From a virus (taxonomy: Duplodnaviria > Caudoviricetes), in the IMG/VR virus record IMGVR_UViG_3300044800_000405, positions 1 to 50,456 of that record: DNA of 50,456 bases. One strand, written 5' to 3'. A program made the translations under genes and the position numbers. Each line of letters starts with the position of its first letter. Positions within the stretch are counted from its first letter, which is position 1. Positions 7,237 through 46,832 of this stretch are shown here, piece after piece. The notes beneath the pieces are model-generated. The model saw only the letters and a list, made by a program, of their open reading frames with translations, searched no databases and was not told the DNA's origin.

Positions 7237-7264
7237 TTGACACCACCAGCACTTTGGGAAAAAT
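7237..7264 (+). promoter_or_regulatory. Promoter with CCACCAGC motif; leaderless-like start at 7271
   Basis: TTGACA 7237-7242 directly followed by CCACCAGC; weak -10 AAAAAT 7259-7264. Confidence 0.6.
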
Positions 7265-8663: not shown

Positions 8664-8693
8664 TTGACGCTCACCACCACCAGCGCCTATCGT
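8664..8693 (+). promoter_or_regulatory. Promoter of rpmI-rplT with CCACCAGC motif
   Basis: TTGACG 8664-8669, CCACCAGC 8677-8684, TATCGT 8688-8693. Confidence 0.65.
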
Positions 8694-18180: not shown

Positions 18181-18471
18181 ATGCACTACCGAAACGGCAA
18201 AGAAGCGCACGATGGCGACCCCGTCATTGGCCAGACCTACAAAAACTCCGGCGTCGTCATTGCCGGCAAAATTCACAGCATCAATCCCGGTCAAAACACC
18301 TGCAACTGCACCGTGGCCGTTCCCGTCATGGGCGGTGTCGAGCACCTGTCCTGCCGCAACGTGGATGAATTCTACTCCGCTGCCGATGCCTTCGCCGCCA
18401 TGGAGCAGGCCCTGCGCTGCCCGGCGGTGGAAGTCCCGCCTCCGCCCGCGCCAACTCCCAAATTCTTGTAG
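18181..18471 (+). CDS. Hypothetical protein
   Basis: MHYRNGKEAHDGD.V...G.....PG..TCN. Confidence 0.65.
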   Translation: MHYRNGKEAHDGDPVIGQTYKNSGVVIAGKIHSINPGQNTCNCTVAVPVMGGVEHLSCRNVDEFYSAADAFAAMEQALRCPAVEVPPPPAPTPKFL

Positions 18472-18481
18472 CCGCATGTGG

Positions 18482-18500
18482 CACAGACCTCTGGTCTGTG
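18482..18500. promoter_or_regulatory. Perfect palindrome (operator-like) within putative tRNA promoter
   Basis: CACAGACC-TCT-GGTCTGTG; TGGCAC-17 nt-TATCTT overlaps it. Confidence 0.55.
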
Positions 18501-18522
18501 TTATCTTTCGCAAATTCATCGG

Positions 18523-18597
18523 TGCGGGGTAGAACAGTGGTAGTTCGGCAGCCTCATAAACTGCTTGTCGGTGGTTCGATTCCACCCTCCGCAACCA
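18523..18597 (+). tRNA. tRNA with CAT anticodon (Met, initiator-like body), CCA encoded
   Basis: Cloverleaf: TGCGGGG/CTCCGCA acceptor, GAAC/GTTC D-stem, CTCATAA loop, GGTGG-TTCGATT-CCACC T-arm, ACCA end. Confidence 0.92.
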
Positions 18598-18610
18598 CTT
18601 TATTTCCGAC

Positions 18611-18638
18611 TTGACCCTGTCTGCTGGTGGTGTAAATT
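18611..18638 (+). promoter_or_regulatory. Promoter of the Cas12f-like gene with GCTGGTGG in spacer
   Basis: TTGACC 18611-18616, GCTGGTGG 18623-18630, TAAATT 18633-18638. Confidence 0.6.
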
Positions 18639-18647
18639 CCCGCCACC

Positions 18648-20141
18648 ATGAGAATGTCCCTAAGAAAGCATCGCCGTGTGCGGGCCAGCGCCGCCAAAAC
18701 TCAACGCCGCTACATGCGGCTGGCGGCGAAGGTGGTTAAAAATGTTTTTGTCCCGGCCCAAAAAGGAACCCCCCTGGGACCACCCGCCCCACTGGTCCAG
18801 AAACTTCCCCTGCCCTCGTCCGTCGCGCCTTCCGTCCCTGCCGTCCCTTCGGCCACCCCCGCGCCCGGAAAAAGTTTGGTTTGCAGCCAGTGCGGCACCG
18901 CCCCCAAAACCCCCCTTATCGGCCGTCTCCCGCGCGGGTGGAAAAGGATGGAGGCCGAGGTCGTCTGCCCCAAATGCTGGCATGACAAGTTTTTCCTCCG
19001 CGCCATCACCTTTGCCGTGTCCGGCCCCATCGTAAAAGAGGACTGGCCGGCCTTGCGTGAAGCCTTGCAGGCAGGCTGGGCGCAATCCACCCGGCTCTGC
19101 AACTGGGCCGTTACCGAACTCGCCAAGGCCGATGTCACCCGCCAGCCAGACATGGCCAAACTGCCCAAGTTCGCCCTGCCGTATTTATACCCGCCCGCGC
19201 GCAAGTTGTTCCCCGGCCTGGCCAGCCAAACGGTCGTGGCCCTGCTCAACACCGTCCAGCGCAAGTATGCCCAGACCCGCTTTGAACGCATCTGGCTTGG
19301 GAATGTCTCCCTGCAAAGCTACAAGTACCCCGTGCCCGTGCCCGTGCCCGCTGCCGGCTATTCCTGCGAACTGATGAAGCGCGGGCCGGACCGCGTGCCC
19401 GTTGTCCATCTGCGCATCGGCGACCAGCGTTTTTCCTTGTTATTGCGTGGCGGCGTTGAATGGGCGCGCCAGTTACATGACTTCACCCAAGTGGTGCATG
19501 GCCACGGTTTGCAGTGCGAGGCCGCCATTGGCCGGCGGCGCGTGACGGACTCCGATACCTGGAACGGCGTGGCCGAGCGTCAGGCCGGCGGCGGCCAGCG
19601 CCAGCATTACCGCATCATGCTCAAGTTGGTTGCGTGGCTGCCCCGCAAACCTGTTGGCAAAAAACAGAAACCCAAAAACCTCACCTTGAATACCGGCCAA
19701 GACTTTTTCTGGCAGGCTGTTCTGGATGGCGGCCAGCCTTGGATTTTACATGCCGATCATGTCCGGGGCTGGGTGTTAAGCCATGCCCACCGGCTGCAAC
19801 ATTGGAGTGACGACCAGAAGTTTGAGCACCGGCGCAACGCGCGGGCGCGGCAGCCCCTTAACGAACACCGCGCAGCGGCGGCGCGCAAGCAAAACGACCG
19901 GCTCGATACTTGGTGTCATACTGCCGCTGCGCTTTTCACCCAATGGTGCTCCCGCCAGCGTGTAACACGGGTGCAATATGATGAAACCGGCGGCCATTTT
20001 CTTGAAAGTTTTCCTTGGCACCGGCTTAAAACCCTGTTACAAGAGAAACTGAACGTGGCCGGAATTGACTTTGCCGAAGTTGCGAGCGCCACAGTGCCGG
20101 AGGAATCCAGCACCAGCGCTCGCCAAAAGACAAAGTCCTGA
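18648..20141 (+). CDS. Cas12f-like type V effector, predicted nuclease-dead, with N-terminal zinc finger
   Basis: By-eye alignment to AsCas12f1 motifs (GNVSLQSYKYPVP ~ GDMSIPSYKRDIP; KNLTLNTG ~ KIMGIDLG; RVQYDET ~ TIQMEDL; FPWHRLKTLLQEKLNVAGI ~ WTYYDLQQKIIYKAEEAGI); adjacent CRISPR array. Confidence 0.8.
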   Translation: MRMSLRKHRRVRASAAKTQRRYMRLAAKVVKNVFVPAQKGTPLGPPAPLVQKLPLPSSVAPSVPAVPSATPAPGKSLVCSQCGTAPKTPLIGRLPRGWKRMEAEVVCPKCWHDKFFLRAITFAVSGPIVKEDWPALREALQAGWAQSTRLCNWAVTELAKADVTRQPDMAKLPKFALPYLYPPARKLFPGLASQTVVALLNTVQRKYAQTRFERIWLGNVSLQSYKYPVPVPVPAAGYSCELMKRGPDRVPVVHLRIGDQRFSLLLRGGVEWARQLHDFTQVVHGHGLQCEAAIGRRRVTDSDTWNGVAERQAGGGQRQHYRIMLKLVAWLPRKPVGKKQKPKNLTLNTGQDFFWQAVLDGGQPWILHADHVRGWVLSHAHRLQHWSDDQKFEHRRNARARQPLNEHRAAAARKQNDRLDTWCHTAAALFTQWCSRQRVTRVQYDETGGHFLESFPWHRLKTLLQEKLNVAGIDFAEVASATVPEESSTSARQKTKS

Positions 20142-20260
20142 ACGGCAGTATTTTGAGTGACCGATACACTCAGCGCGGTTGCGCCTTGGTACGCTTGCCG
20201 GCCCTGGCTCTCGCGGAACACCGTTTAAGTAGCGGGGATTACGCTGTTTACAGCCCGGCC
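20082..20260 (+). promoter_or_regulatory. Putative CRISPR leader / scaffold RNA region
   Basis: Lies between effector core and repeat 1; inverted repeat GCGAGCGC (20082-20089)/GCGCTCGC (20116-20123); degenerate repeats are at the opposite end of the array. Confidence 0.5.
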
Positions 20261-20869
20261 CCCGCAGCGACTAAAATTAAAGCTGTCGGCTTCGGGGGTT
20301 CCGTGTCAAACCGTTGCTTCTTTTGCCAGAAAGCCCGCAGCGACTAAAATTAAAGCTGTCGGCTTCGGGCGATGTCTTGTAGCGAAAGAGTTTAACACCC
20401 GACTCCCGCAGCGACTAAAATTAAAGCTGTCGGCTTCGGGAGTGTCCTGAAATAATTCCACGAGGTCGAAAGCCCCCCGCAGCGACTAAAATTAAAGCTG
20501 TCGGCTTCGGCTTCGCACCGCGAAATCAAGAAGCTGGACAAGCCCCCCGCAGCGACTAAAATTAAAGCTGTCGGCTTCGGGCGCACGCCGTTTGTGGAGA
20601 GCCGAACTGAATTCCTGCCCGCAGCGACTAAAATTAAAGCTGTCGGCTTCGGGGTGAAACGCGATGTTGACACCGGCAACAAACTTATTCCCGCAGCGAC
20701 TAAAATTAAAGCGGTCAGCTTCGGGTCGCCACCAGTAGAGAGTTTTGGAGAGGAAGAAATCCCGCAGCGACTAAAATTAAAGCGGTCGCCTTCGGGTTGC
20801 CTGTTGGGTTGACAGGATGACCACAACCCGCCACCCGCAGCGACTAAAATTAAAGCGGTCAGCTTCGGG
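20261..20869 (+). CRISPR. CRISPR array: 9 x 36-bp repeats (CCCGCAGCGACTAAAATTAAAGCTGTCGGCTTCGGG), 8 unique spacers of 34-37 bp
   Basis: Repeats start at 20261, 20334, 20405, 20476, 20546, 20618, 20690, 20761, 20834; repeat 4 ends in C; repeats 7-9 carry substitutions; orientation inferred. Confidence 0.97.
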
Positions 20870-20886
20870 CTTACAATCACAGATTC

Positions 20887-22728
20887 CTAAAACGTCAGCG
20901 CATGTTGCTTCCGTTGCTCCCGCAACTTGTCCTGCCGTTTCATAAACCAGTCCCAGGTGGAATTCTCCGCCGGCACATCCGCGCCCAGGCGTTTGATCTT
21001 GAACCCGCGTTGCCGCGCCCCTTCCAGCGCAATCGCCAGCCAGTCAAACAGGTCCGGGCTTTTGCCCATCCGCTCCTTGAGTTCATCCTTCGGCTCCACT
21101 TCAATCTTGTCGCCCGCCACCGTCTTGTACTCGCGCCAGCAGCCCTCGGCCATCACGTCCTCCGGCAACTCTCGCATCTGGCCGCTCTCTATCGTCTCCC
21201 GCACGCTAAACCACATCTCCGTTATGAACTTGCTGTAATGTTCCTCGCACCGTTTCAGCCGGCGCCGCCCGTCCTTTTCAGCTACCCATAAATCCCAACG
21301 CACGGGCCGCGTCGTCGTCCGCGCCCCGGCGTCCACCGGCACCGGCGGGTTAAAGCCAAACTTCCGCGCAAAGGCAAACCCCACCGTCCCCTTGCCGAAT
21401 GAATCGTAAAAACAATTGTCCGGCGCTATCCCGTTGGCTTCCAAATCCTCCTTCACCAGGTCCGCTATCTGGTCTTCCGGCGGCAGGGCCGGGTTCACAA
21501 TTATTTTCAATATGCGCGGCGGGTTCACCCGCAAAATCTGCGTGCCCTCGGCACTCTCCCCAAACTCTATCCATCCGCCCACGCAGCGGTCCCCGCCGCC
21601 ATAGGCCGGGTCCACGCTGTAAATGCGCGGGCGCGGTTTGCCCGCCCACACCGCGCGCTCGTGCGCCCCGTGCAGCCGGCACAATTGCCGGGTTATCACG
21701 CGCGAATGTTCCAGCCCTATCCGCATCCGGCCCATGATTTGCGTCTCATACTCCGGCGAGTTTTTCCCGTAATCATGCGCGATAATCCGCTCATAATCGT
21801 GCCCAATCAGTCCCTTGTATTGGTCTTGTGGCTGGTCAAAGTTCGGACTGTCCAGCCCAATCAAATTCACGCACACCCCGCCCAGCAGTTTGATGGGCCA
21901 CACCTGCGTCTTTTCCAGCCCGTCCACCGCCGGCCAGCCCTCCAGCGGCTCGCCCACAATGCCCAGTTGATCGTTCGGGTCGTGGCGCGGATTCCCGCTC
22001 CCAATCACCTTCAACCCGCCCGCGCCCGTGTTGCTCCGCATGTTTGGCAGGCAGCCCAGGAACGTCGGCGCCATGAACTGCAATTCGTCGCACTGAAACC
22101 GGAACCGTTTTTGTTTTATCCCCGCAAAGTTCCCCAGCCCCACCCATTGCTTGCCCACATAGCACGCCTTGCAGAAAATTCCCTTGCGCAGGTCCCGCGC
22201 GTCCTCGCTGTCGGCGGCGCGGTCGTCCGTCGCAATGCGCTGTTTGTATTCAATCAAGTGTCCCGCCAGCCAGGAATAATTTTCCCGGCCCGCCTTCCAT
22301 AAACTTTTCATCTCGCCCCACACGGCGTCTTCCAGTTTGTCCTTGGTCGTGCTGCTCACCAGCACCGCCGTTTCATCCGGGTAACACCAGTAATCAATCA
22401 GGCTGAACTCGCTCGCGTGGCTCGTCTTCTGGCTCGAAGCCGCCCCCATCAAAATCGTGATGCTGTTCTTGATTATCTCCCGGTAAATCAACTCGCTCCA
22501 ACGGTGGCAGTAACGGTCCGGCCAGATCAATTTGCGCGCGTTCAAATAATGCCGGAGCAACTCGCCTTCCCCCTCAGACTGTGGACTGTGGACTGTGGCC
22601 TCTGGACTGTGGACTGTGGACTGTGGACTCAAGACTTTTTTCCACGTCCTCCGTATCATGTTAAACTCCACGGCCAGCGCATCCGGTTTGCGCTGCCATT
22701 TCTGCCCGTATTGGTCCTCGTAAATCAT
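20887..22728 (-). CDS. Terminase large subunit
   Basis: Walker A-like MGAASSQKT, Walker B FQCDE, GSGNP, RNase H-like SVDPAYGGGDRCV and KSPDLFD. Confidence 0.85.
   Translation of the reverse strand: MIYEDQYGQKWQRKPDALAVEFNMIRRTWKKVLSPQSTVHSPEATVHSPQSEGEGELLRHYLNARKLIWPDRYCHRWSELIYREIIKNSITILMGAASSQKTSHASEFSLIDYWCYPDETAVLVSSTTKDKLEDAVWGEMKSLWKAGRENYSWLAGHLIEYKQRIATDDRAADSEDARDLRKGIFCKACYVGKQWVGLGNFAGIKQKRFRFQCDELQFMAPTFLGCLPNMRSNTGAGGLKVIGSGNPRHDPNDQLGIVGEPLEGWPAVDGLEKTQVWPIKLLGGVCVNLIGLDSPNFDQPQDQYKGLIGHDYERIIAHDYGKNSPEYETQIMGRMRIGLEHSRVITRQLCRLHGAHERAVWAGKPRPRIYSVDPAYGGGDRCVGGWIEFGESAEGTQILRVNPPRILKIIVNPALPPEDQIADLVKEDLEANGIAPDNCFYDSFGKGTVGFAFARKFGFNPPVPVDAGARTTTRPVRWDLWVAEKDGRRRLKRCEEHYSKFITEMWFSVRETIESGQMRELPEDVMAEGCWREYKTVAGDKIEVEPKDELKERMGKSPDLFDWLAIALEGARQRGFKIKRLGADVPAENSTWDWFMKRQDKLREQRKQHALTF
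22576..22629 (-). repeat. (CCACAGT)n heptamer array in frame within terL
   Basis: GGACTGT units on +; encodes SPQSTVHSPEATVHSPQS. Confidence 0.85.
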
Positions 22729-46598: not shown

Positions 46599-46628
46599 AC
46601 TGTCCTCCAACCACCAGCAACTTGTCAA
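46599..46628 (-). promoter_or_regulatory. Promoter with GCTGGTGG in spacer
   Basis: Minus strand TTGACA (46628-46623), GCTGGTGG (46618-46611), GACAGT. Confidence 0.55.
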
Positions 46629-46832
46629 CGTAAAAACTTTTCCCGGCCCGGCGGCCCGGCCCCCAAATTCGCGGCCCGGCCTGTGAATAAGTGGGCCTCC
46701 CGCGCCATAACTGTCCATAATCAACGCTTAAACACCTTTGTTTCTGTAATCTGGCATCTTGGGGCAAAACCTGCTCGCAAGTTTTTGTTGTCTTCTTCTG
46801 TCACCCCGCCAGAATAAGGACGCTAGAACAGT

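Follow-up and report, generated by a model that had tools for sequence, protein, structure and literature searches.

A phage-borne CRISPR array with a putative non-cutting Cas12f-like effector: mobile elements, rather than promoters, as the probable targets

The CRISPR array analyzed in this study is located at 20261..20869 (+ strand) of the virus record IMGVR_UViG_3300044800_000405, downstream of an open reading frame (ORF) for a Cas12f-like effector (18648..20141, + strand). The window, below also called W, is the entire IMG/VR record, i.e. the whole stretch of 50456 nt that was analyzed. We consider it moderately probable that the effector and the array constitute a non-cutting, phage-borne Cas12f system directed against rival mobile elements, and that the TTGACA boxes present in the spacers are incidental. 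The initial annotation had taken these boxes, which correspond to the −35 hexamer of promoters, as a sign that a binding-only effector is aimed at promoters of host defence genes or competing phages. Two parts of this interpretation, the binding-only effector and the mobile-element targets, were borne out. The aim at promoters is not supported by the tests that were run; what remains of it is a weak family-wide signal, an excess on the sense strand of boxes with at most one mismatch to TTGACA.

The effector ORF encodes 497 amino acids (aa) when read from its first ATG. The part conserved in homologues begins near residue 75 (about 18870) and opens with a CxxC...CxxC zinc ribbon; because the N-terminal 75 residues are not conserved in most of the homologues, the real start codon is uncertain. 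The conserved 423 residues were modelled with AlphaFold (predicted local distance difference test score, pLDDT, of 86), and Foldseek analysis of this model revealed OsCas12f (E 2.3e-16) and AsCas12f (3e-16) as the nearest structures, with further Cas12f structures down to 1e-11. All of the top 15 matches were chains of Cas12f or nuclease-dead Cas12f (dCas12f; E 2.3e-16 to 1.7e-12), with TnpB and other Cas12 types far behind. The match to the dCas12f–guide RNA complex 9n9c had an E value of 1.3e-14, and the profile of the effector family matched a Cas12f chain with an E value of 2e-9.

This fold lacks an intact Asp-Glu-Asp RuvC triad. The RuvC-I Asp (within GVDMG of the OsCas12f chain) aligns to N, K, A, S, R or H in all 19 family members compared (19/19) and is never replaced by an acidic residue, while the RuvC-II Glu (within MEDL of the same chain) aligns to D, N or Q; these aligned Asp and Glu positions are presumably the catalytic residues of Cas12f. 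The family stops where the OsCas12f chain goes on with TSQ, ahead of the zinc finger and of RuvC-III, and its proteins extend for about 15–30 aa beyond the last RuvC strand. For the zinc finger, the Pfam TNB model reached 13.3 bits in the effector, which is under the cut-off of 26.3, and the only hints given by PADLOC were sub-threshold (Cas12u3 model, E 8e-4; Cas12f model, E 2e-3). The Cas12f fold, the loss of the RuvC-I Asp and the termination ahead of the TNB and RuvC-III parts together argue that the effector is very probably unable to cut DNA and is a binding-only protein. The corresponding premise of the initial annotation thus agrees with the fold, the altered RuvC-I and RuvC-II positions and the absence of TNB and RuvC-III.

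The effector belongs to a large family. A word-based protein search identified 27 relatives of 314–525 aa, and in an hmmsearch with the effector profile 706 clusters (50% identity) passed a threshold of E<=1e-30, while 1297 passed E<=1e-3. Among the best 150 profile matches most were about 380–450 aa long (range 330–580), and nearly all of them extended over almost the full profile. When the profile was applied to 401 Acidobacteriota genomes, the sole match was in G001, a metagenome-assembled genome (MAG) of 8.1 Mb, which is considered below. A second effector homologue is also present in this MAG (L075/L076; G001:C25:238186-238969), in the form of two adjoining profile pieces (124–186 and 193–421), and an array was absent within the 3.6 kb examined around it.

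The array is composed of nine 36-nt repeats, which start at positions 20261, 20334, 20405, 20476, 20546, 20618, 20690, 20761 and 20834, and of eight unique spacers, each of 34–37 nt and together of 285 nt, which is the repeat/spacer pattern of a CRISPR array. Repeats 7–9 are variant, and the substitutions in these last three repeats indicate that the right end of the array is its old end (trailer). The array is predicted to be transcribed on the + strand, as suggested by the degenerate distal repeats, by the scaffold-like region upstream and by the T-rich 5′ flanks of the protospacers of a homologous array (see below). The repeat RNA folds mildly better than shuffled sequences (z −1.7 to −2.7), a result that does not decide between the strands. 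Two resemblances were seen within the array: the 3′-terminal 15 nt of spacer 2 (20390–20404) are similar to the 15 nt of the leader that abut repeat 1 (20246–20260), an extended 54-nt copy of this likeness being scored at 89% by the repeat finder, and spacers 3 and 4 share the 3′ end AAGCCC.

The window occurs in five peat-metagenome runs (X1–X5). In a contig of run X2, a different spacer of 30 nt, which also contains CCACCAG, is located at 20261 immediately before a repeat. The content of the array therefore varies between samples, although no Cas1 or other adaptation gene was found in W.

The 119 nt between the effector stop codon and repeat 1 (20142..20260, + strand) form a putative structured RNA region that resembles a leader with a scaffold or trans-activating CRISPR RNA (tracrRNA). 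A region of 100–170 nt in this position is kept in all the array-bearing loci that were examined for it, nine in number (W, L015, L016, L017, L019, L024, L025, L033 and L039), and 17 of the 26 pairs of its RNAalifold consensus carry at least one compensatory change. The region probably serves the effector family as guide scaffold or tracrRNA. A search for an anti-repeat near the arrays gave no convincing complement to the repeat (best local score 10–16). Partner proteins were not apparent either: the largest cluster of neighbouring genes spans only 3 of 20 loci, and beside the W effector there was no sigma-factor Pfam hit in the flanking ORFs and no rpoE or helix-turn-helix (HTH) neighbour. 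In view of this lack of a sigma partner, activation of transcription is not expected of the system.

Four scans with the effector protein or its alignment yielded 31 homologous loci (L-numbers), several of which were duplicates. An array of about 36-nt repeats (3–10 repeats) is located downstream of the effector gene in nine distinct loci in addition to W. Many of the loci end within 700 nt of this gene; in six with at least 3.7 kb downstream (L012, L013, L023, L026, L032 and L038) no array was detected by a seed search, and the repeat finder agreed on three of them. The nine arrays provided 39 spacers (1400 nt), or 42 unique spacers when an extra copy of the array of G001 was included.

It was in G001 that complete targets could be localized. 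The homologous locus L033 is placed at the end of a 509-kb contig of this MAG, and two of its five spacers match the MAG perfectly, over 36 and 35 nt; the alternative copy of the array finds the same two sites. The L033 spacer 4 target falls within the 3′ part of a gene for a 127-aa protein with an XRE-type HTH domain (HTH_31, 1.3e-12; PHROG transcriptional regulators), in antisense orientation, about 65–100 nt before the start of a PD-(D/E)XK gene, and adjoins an integrase fragment. For L033 spacer 3, the target is within the 3′ half of an ORF of 214 aa that neighbours a phage integrase gene (5.8e-31). This ORF, which public records call as a 207-aa protein, gave no family hit; its N-terminus appears HTH-like by eye only. 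In this MAG the guides thus hit other integrated mobile elements, in agreement with the suggestion of the initial annotation that competing phages are among the targets. Both sites, however, are inside predicted genes and not upstream of them, contrary to what was expected of an array directed at promoters. The fact that perfect self-matches are tolerated in G001 is as expected for a non-cutting effector. A search of the homologous array against 137 genomes of the same order as G001 recovered only the two known protospacers and one partial match of 27 nt.

Variant spacers were observed in two of the homologous loci. The extra array copy of G001, L042 (G001:C11:1-540), compared with L033:2888-3280, is a second assembly of the same array with a duplicated three-spacer cassette, and it contains sequence variants of spacer 4 and of one other spacer. 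Locus L017 carries two near-identical spacers (32 nt, 2 differences). These variants suggest that the same target sites were picked repeatedly in diverging elements.

For the spacers of W itself, contigs of four of the peat runs were compared with the array, the parts of the array lacking contig cover being given no weight. In contigs of X2 and X4, a stretch of no fewer than 255 unlike letters gives way to a match with spacer 8 (20797..20833) precisely at position 20797; in X4 a match ends exactly at 20833 and is followed by 51 unlike letters, and extra depth was seen over that bin only. We read this match as a protospacer located outside the phage. Its 5′ flank is CTC, and those of the two L033 protospacers are TTT and TTC. 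These three sites, which belong to two different effectors, may contain a putative protospacer-adjacent motif (PAM), which in Cas12f is T-rich and located 5′. An X2 contig that matches the array up to 20617 and then diverges may represent a partial target of spacer 5.

The other seven spacers gave no match in the collections searched. When all spacers were compared (blastn-short) with the window, with 25 further loci and with five complete records of related phages, only chance matches of 13–16 nt were obtained outside the arrays, on which grounds self-targeting was rejected. A blastn search with the whole array gave nothing below E 2 among GenBank phages and no match among PLSDB plasmids. An exact search of IMG/VR with the 24-nt starts of spacers 8, 6 and 1 and with the repeat core returned 0 matches for each, a search that misses mismatched targets. 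Among the 401 Acidobacteriota genomes, which may not belong to the host phylum, 16 showed weak partial matches (best E 3.6e-4 per genome; 20–43 nt at 79–100%), none of which covered a whole spacer. The recurrent matches of spacer 4 in these genomes share an identical core of about 19 nt (by eye) within a large conserved ORF and were read as chance.

The boxes that had drawn attention to promoters are where they had been reported. Perfect copies of TTGACA are present in spacer 1 (20304..20309, − strand, i.e. TGTCAA on +; offset 8 from the spacer start), in spacer 6 (20667..20672, +; offset 14, the spacer ending 17 nt after the box) and in spacer 8 (20809..20814, +; offset 13), and spacers 2, 4 and 7 likewise contain the reported TTAACA, TGGACA and CCACCAG (20729), respectively. 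The expectation of 0.12 perfect boxes was also reproduced (0.117 from the frequency of TTGACA in the window, 24 sites in 50456 nt, and 0.114 from the spacer composition). Three or more perfect boxes correspond to a Poisson P of 2.4e-4 and were reached in 0.025% of 20000 spacer shuffles. Some hexamer, however, attained three copies in 41% of the same shuffles, and since TTGACA was picked post hoc, after the spacers had been read, the count of three is weakened. Ranked by the excess of copies with at most one mismatch on both strands, TTGACA takes position 69 of 2080 hexamers in W.

The homologous arrays did not replicate this signal. Perfect TTGACA on either strand was found in 3 of the 8 spacers of W and in 0 of the 39 homologue spacers, where 0.30 would be expected, and there was also none among the 42 unique spacers (sense strand by listing, antisense by eye); the enrichment that had been anticipated across the family is therefore not seen for perfect boxes. 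The shorter TTGAC occurs 4 times in the 39 spacers versus 1.77 expected (P 0.098). Boxes with at most one mismatch number 13 on both strands, versus 7.3 expected (P 0.045), TTGACA ranking 146 of 2080. The boxes of the homologue spacers are scattered at offsets from 5 to 29 and have no −10 partner within the spacer or the next repeat. A striking motif count in eight spacers calls for replication; here the perfect boxes were not replicated, and the degenerate ones gave a faintly positive outcome.

Further evidence came from the promoter-like sites of the phage. TTGAC(A/G) is followed by CCACCAGC within 0–10 nt at 239, 7237 and 8664 (sites 239-266, 7237-7260 and 8664-8693), and the motif recurs, reversed, at 18611-18638 and 46611-46633; the intergenic placement of these sites was judged by eye against the ORF list. 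A TAnnnT hexamer is present at promoter distance in three of the sites (TATTCT after 239, TATCGT after 8664 and TAAATT after 18611), and in site 18611-18638 the reverse complement of CCACCAGC is located between the −35 and −10 hexamers. The recurring motif reads like a promoter with an operator between its two hexamers. CCACCAG is found 12 times on the + strand and 11 times on the − strand of W, versus 6.8 and 2.7 expected from composition. The view that CCACCAG is the core of a promoter motif of this phage is plausible, CCACCAGC being associated with TTGAC(A/G) at the three sites.

The strongest competitor of our interpretation is that spacers are preferentially kept when they cover −35 regions of rival phages or of host genes, where a non-cutting effector would silence best. 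We regard this as unlikely. The observations that weigh against our own interpretation, and mostly in favour of this one, are several. The Poisson P of 2.4e-4 for the three perfect boxes, against 0.12 expected, stays low even if a reader might have tried about ten motifs. The sense strand of the W spacers contains 5 boxes with at most one mismatch versus 1.16 under the null (P 0.0046), and an independent excess was found on the sense strand of the homologues, i.e. 10 versus 3.96 in the 42 spacers (P 0.008; rank 38 of 4096), or 9 versus 4.22 (P 0.029) under a Markov-1 null with the three variant spacers dropped. Just three protospacers could be placed overall, and two of them belong to a homologue that is 36% identical and has another host. 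The target of spacer 8 is known for 30 nt on each side, where 3 of 6 frames are open (by eye), so that it could be coding or non-coding. Finally, guides of the CRISPR-associated dCas12f cluster described by Hoffmann et al. (PMC13472631) are reported to match promoter regions of efflux genes in some cases.

Additional points speak for the same alternative. The promoter-like sites of W carry TTGACA and then CCACCAGC, and spacer 6 resembles the site at 226–268 (local score 26 versus a shuffle mean of 22.3, reached by 1 of 40 shuffles). Promoter targets are also reported for TldR and, sometimes, for CRISPR-associated dCas12f (PMC13472631).

Several results argue in the opposite direction. The antisense strands of the W spacers and of the homologue spacers contain 1 and 4 boxes with at most one mismatch, both at expectation; the strand-split P values are uncorrected, and with about five statistics tried the sense-strand excess is a lead and not a result. 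The likeness of spacer 6 to the site at 226–268 is not significant after eight tests, and its spacing would be 13 nt. The absence of perfect boxes from both sets of homologue spacers, the scatter of the degenerate boxes and the location of 2 of 2 homologue protospacers within genes have been given above. At the target of spacer 8, the hexamers that follow TTGACA are CCAGCA (at 16 nt), CAGCAG (17) and AGCAGC (18), none of which is TAnnnT; this context is not that of a promoter. In the target of L033 spacer 4, a TTGCCA box is likewise devoid of TAnnnT at 16–18 nt and is antisense to its gene. The absence of replication, the genic protospacers and the missing −10 hexamer all tell against an array aimed at promoters. 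The argument behind that proposal, that a binding-only effector is useful mainly at promoters, is also too narrow, since Cas12m is reported to silence invaders by binding (PMC10442227).

A wider version of the same idea, which we consider equally doubtful, would make the large dead-Cas12f family, carried with its evolving arrays by phages of bacteria from peat and soil, a set of programmable repressors employed when mobile elements come into conflict: in W the guides would lean towards the −35 side of promoters in rivals, the PAM lying upstream and the spacer's sense strand being the promoter strand, and the guides of its relatives would hit repressor genes of resident integrated elements. If true, this would be a natural multiplexed CRISPR interference (CRISPRi) weapon, able to shut rivals down or to wake them while their DNA stays uncut.

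Boxes within the array could instead serve the array itself. A consensus scan of positions 18400–21000 revealed three promoter-like sites with 10 of 12 matches, all on the + strand, in which the hexamer TAAAAT (repeat positions 12–17) is preceded by a −35-like hexamer with 5 of 6 matches at the 3′ end of the spacer: TTGCCA of spacer 1, 16 nt from TAAAAT of repeat 2 (20323..20350); TTAACA of spacer 2, 18 nt from TAAAAT of repeat 3 (20392..20421); and TGGACA of spacer 4, 16 nt from TAAAAT of repeat 5 (20535..20562). TTAACA and TGGACA are the one-mismatch boxes of the initial annotation, which may consequently bear on how the array is transcribed and not on what it targets. Spacer-end hexamers located 16–18 nt upstream of a repeat-borne −10 would then start units of CRISPR RNA (crRNA). 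With the repeats fixed and the spacers shuffled, the mean number of such sites was 0.115, three or more being reached in 0.01% of 20000 trials, and the leader contains TTTACA 19 nt ahead of TAAAAT of repeat 1. Some type II-C arrays are known to carry promoters within their repeats. The pattern in W was, however, noticed post hoc; once 9 of 12 matches sufficed, the excess became weak (3 versus 0.95, P 0.06), and the homologous arrays, whose repeats have no good −10, do not show it. The perfect TTGACA boxes are left unexplained, since they either stand 28–30 nt away from the TAAAAT that follows or occupy the opposite strand. Promoters of this kind are, in our estimation, an improbable account of part of the box pattern, and somewhat more so than selection of spacers for −35 regions.

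The least credible alternative is that the array and the dead effector do not silence anything themselves, and act, e.g., by loading crRNA onto a host Cas12f or as a decoy against host type V immunity: the effector has no nuclease site, W has no adaptation gene and the array content varies between samples (the X2 contig, with another spacer before a repeat), but the large family keeps its full length and a co-varying scaffold beside its own arrays, which argues for a working ribonucleoprotein, and the perfect self-matches tolerated in G001 are hard to explain if an active nuclease used the guides.

A non-cutting system directed against rival mobile elements thus remains our preferred interpretation, and the following mode of action may be proposed for it. 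The system would be a minimal one derived from type V-F, composed of a RuvC-dead Cas12f-like protein of about 420 aa, a scaffold RNA and an array, with neither Cas1 nor a conserved partner. The crRNA (repeat handle, then spacer) would guide the effector to matching DNA marked by a short pyrimidine-rich 5′ flank, where it would bind without cutting. In rival mobile elements residing in the same host, the bound effector may obstruct transcription or other transactions on the DNA. Spacers would be acquired wherever match and flank permit, genes included, and would not be selected for promoters. The three perfect TTGACA boxes would then be mostly a coincidence, aided by post hoc choice, and at most a mild tendency.

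The remaining features of the record concern the phage itself. It is classed as linear, with an estimated completeness of 93%. A tRNA-Met gene (anticodon CAT; 18523..18597, + strand; ARAGORN) lies 50 nt upstream of the effector ORF, and the consensus scan placed a promoter-like sequence (TTGACC, 16 nt, TAAATT; 18611..18638, + strand), which would function as a promoter of the effector gene, 9 nt before the ATG at 18648. On the other side of the array, the large terminase gene (PHROG 2, E 3e-12) occupies 20887-22728 on the minus strand; a search for look-alikes of this terminase in the ESM Atlas returned viral clusters only and gave no clue to the host. The + strand of W is compositionally skewed (C 16827 versus G 12450).

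Nuclease-dead relatives of Cas12f and TnpB have only recently been shown to be natural RNA-guided transcription factors, and those studied use one fixed guide to a host gene. In the family of W, proteins of this kind are carried by phages together with arrays of several spacers whose content varies from sample to sample, and the guides in G001 perfectly match regulator genes of other integrated elements, matches that are evidently tolerated. If silencing by binding alone is true, the system would let mobile elements compete in a programmable, non-destructive manner, and would provide natural CRISPRi proteins of very small size (about 420 aa).

Within the literature searched by title and abstract opening, we found no description of a dead Cas12f that is carried by a phage together with an array; the family may already figure in the supplementary lists of PMC13472631 and PMC10691335. 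Inactivated branches are reported by Altae-Tran et al. for Cas12f as well as for several of the V-U groups. The closest known proteins are those described by Hoffmann et al. (Nature 2026, PMC13472631), i.e. C-terminally truncated dCas12f proteins, most of which are paired with a sigma factor. The CRISPR-associated cluster within that set shares with the W family the Cas12f fold, a truncated C-terminus in which part of the RuvC site is missing, adjoining arrays, a co-varying putative guide scaffold upstream, the lack of a sigma partner and predicted repression. The example given by these authors is, in contrast, chromosomal, in a Chitinophagaceae MAG, and its guide matches upstream of an RND efflux operon, whereas the W family, compared here by description only, is found on peat and soil phages and proviruses, has an N-terminal zinc ribbon and has targets in regulator genes of integrated elements.

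The dCas12f–sigmaE systems (PDB 9n9c and 9n9m) have a nuclease-dead Cas12f scaffold in common with the W effector (Foldseek E 1.3e-14, TM-score 0.55-0.66). They differ from it by an identity of about 12%, by an operon with an extracytoplasmic function (ECF) sigma factor that has a C-terminal extension, no gene being conserved beside the effector across the 20 loci of its family, and by a single fused guide (PMC13472631) in place of a multi-spacer array. TldR proteins, TnpB-like and nuclease-dead repressors from prophages (10.1101/2023.11.30.569447), are described in PMC13472631; they resemble the W effector in that they are encoded by mobile elements and are RuvC-dead through loss of the C-terminus, and they bind DNA under RNA guidance, which is predicted for W too; unlike the W effector, which derives from Cas12f and has an array of eight spacers, TldR arose directly from TnpB and uses one omega-RNA guide, at a flagellin promoter.

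Two further type V systems resemble that of W in function or in setting. Cas12m (type V-M; PMC10442227) is a type V effector of small size, reported to confer protection through silencing of transcription while double-stranded DNA is left uncut. Unlike the W effector, it has a full-length, altered RuvC domain, is about 600 aa long and is encoded by the host, and its Foldseek match to our model reached only E 5e-7. The Cas12r-CRISPR of Thermus Lalka phages (10.64898/2026.04.20.719267) is, like the system of W, a type V effector with an array carried by phages. Most of its spacers hit integrative mobile elements, a role in conflicts between elements was proposed for it, and tRNA genes figure in its biology. 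Cas12r, which is an active nuclease, differs from the W effector in its length (564 aa), in the RuvC Asp that is needed for interference, in the lack of a tracrRNA and in its ARG PAM. The system of W appears to join the dead Cas12f of Hoffmann et al. with the phage carriage and the inter-element targets of Cas12r.

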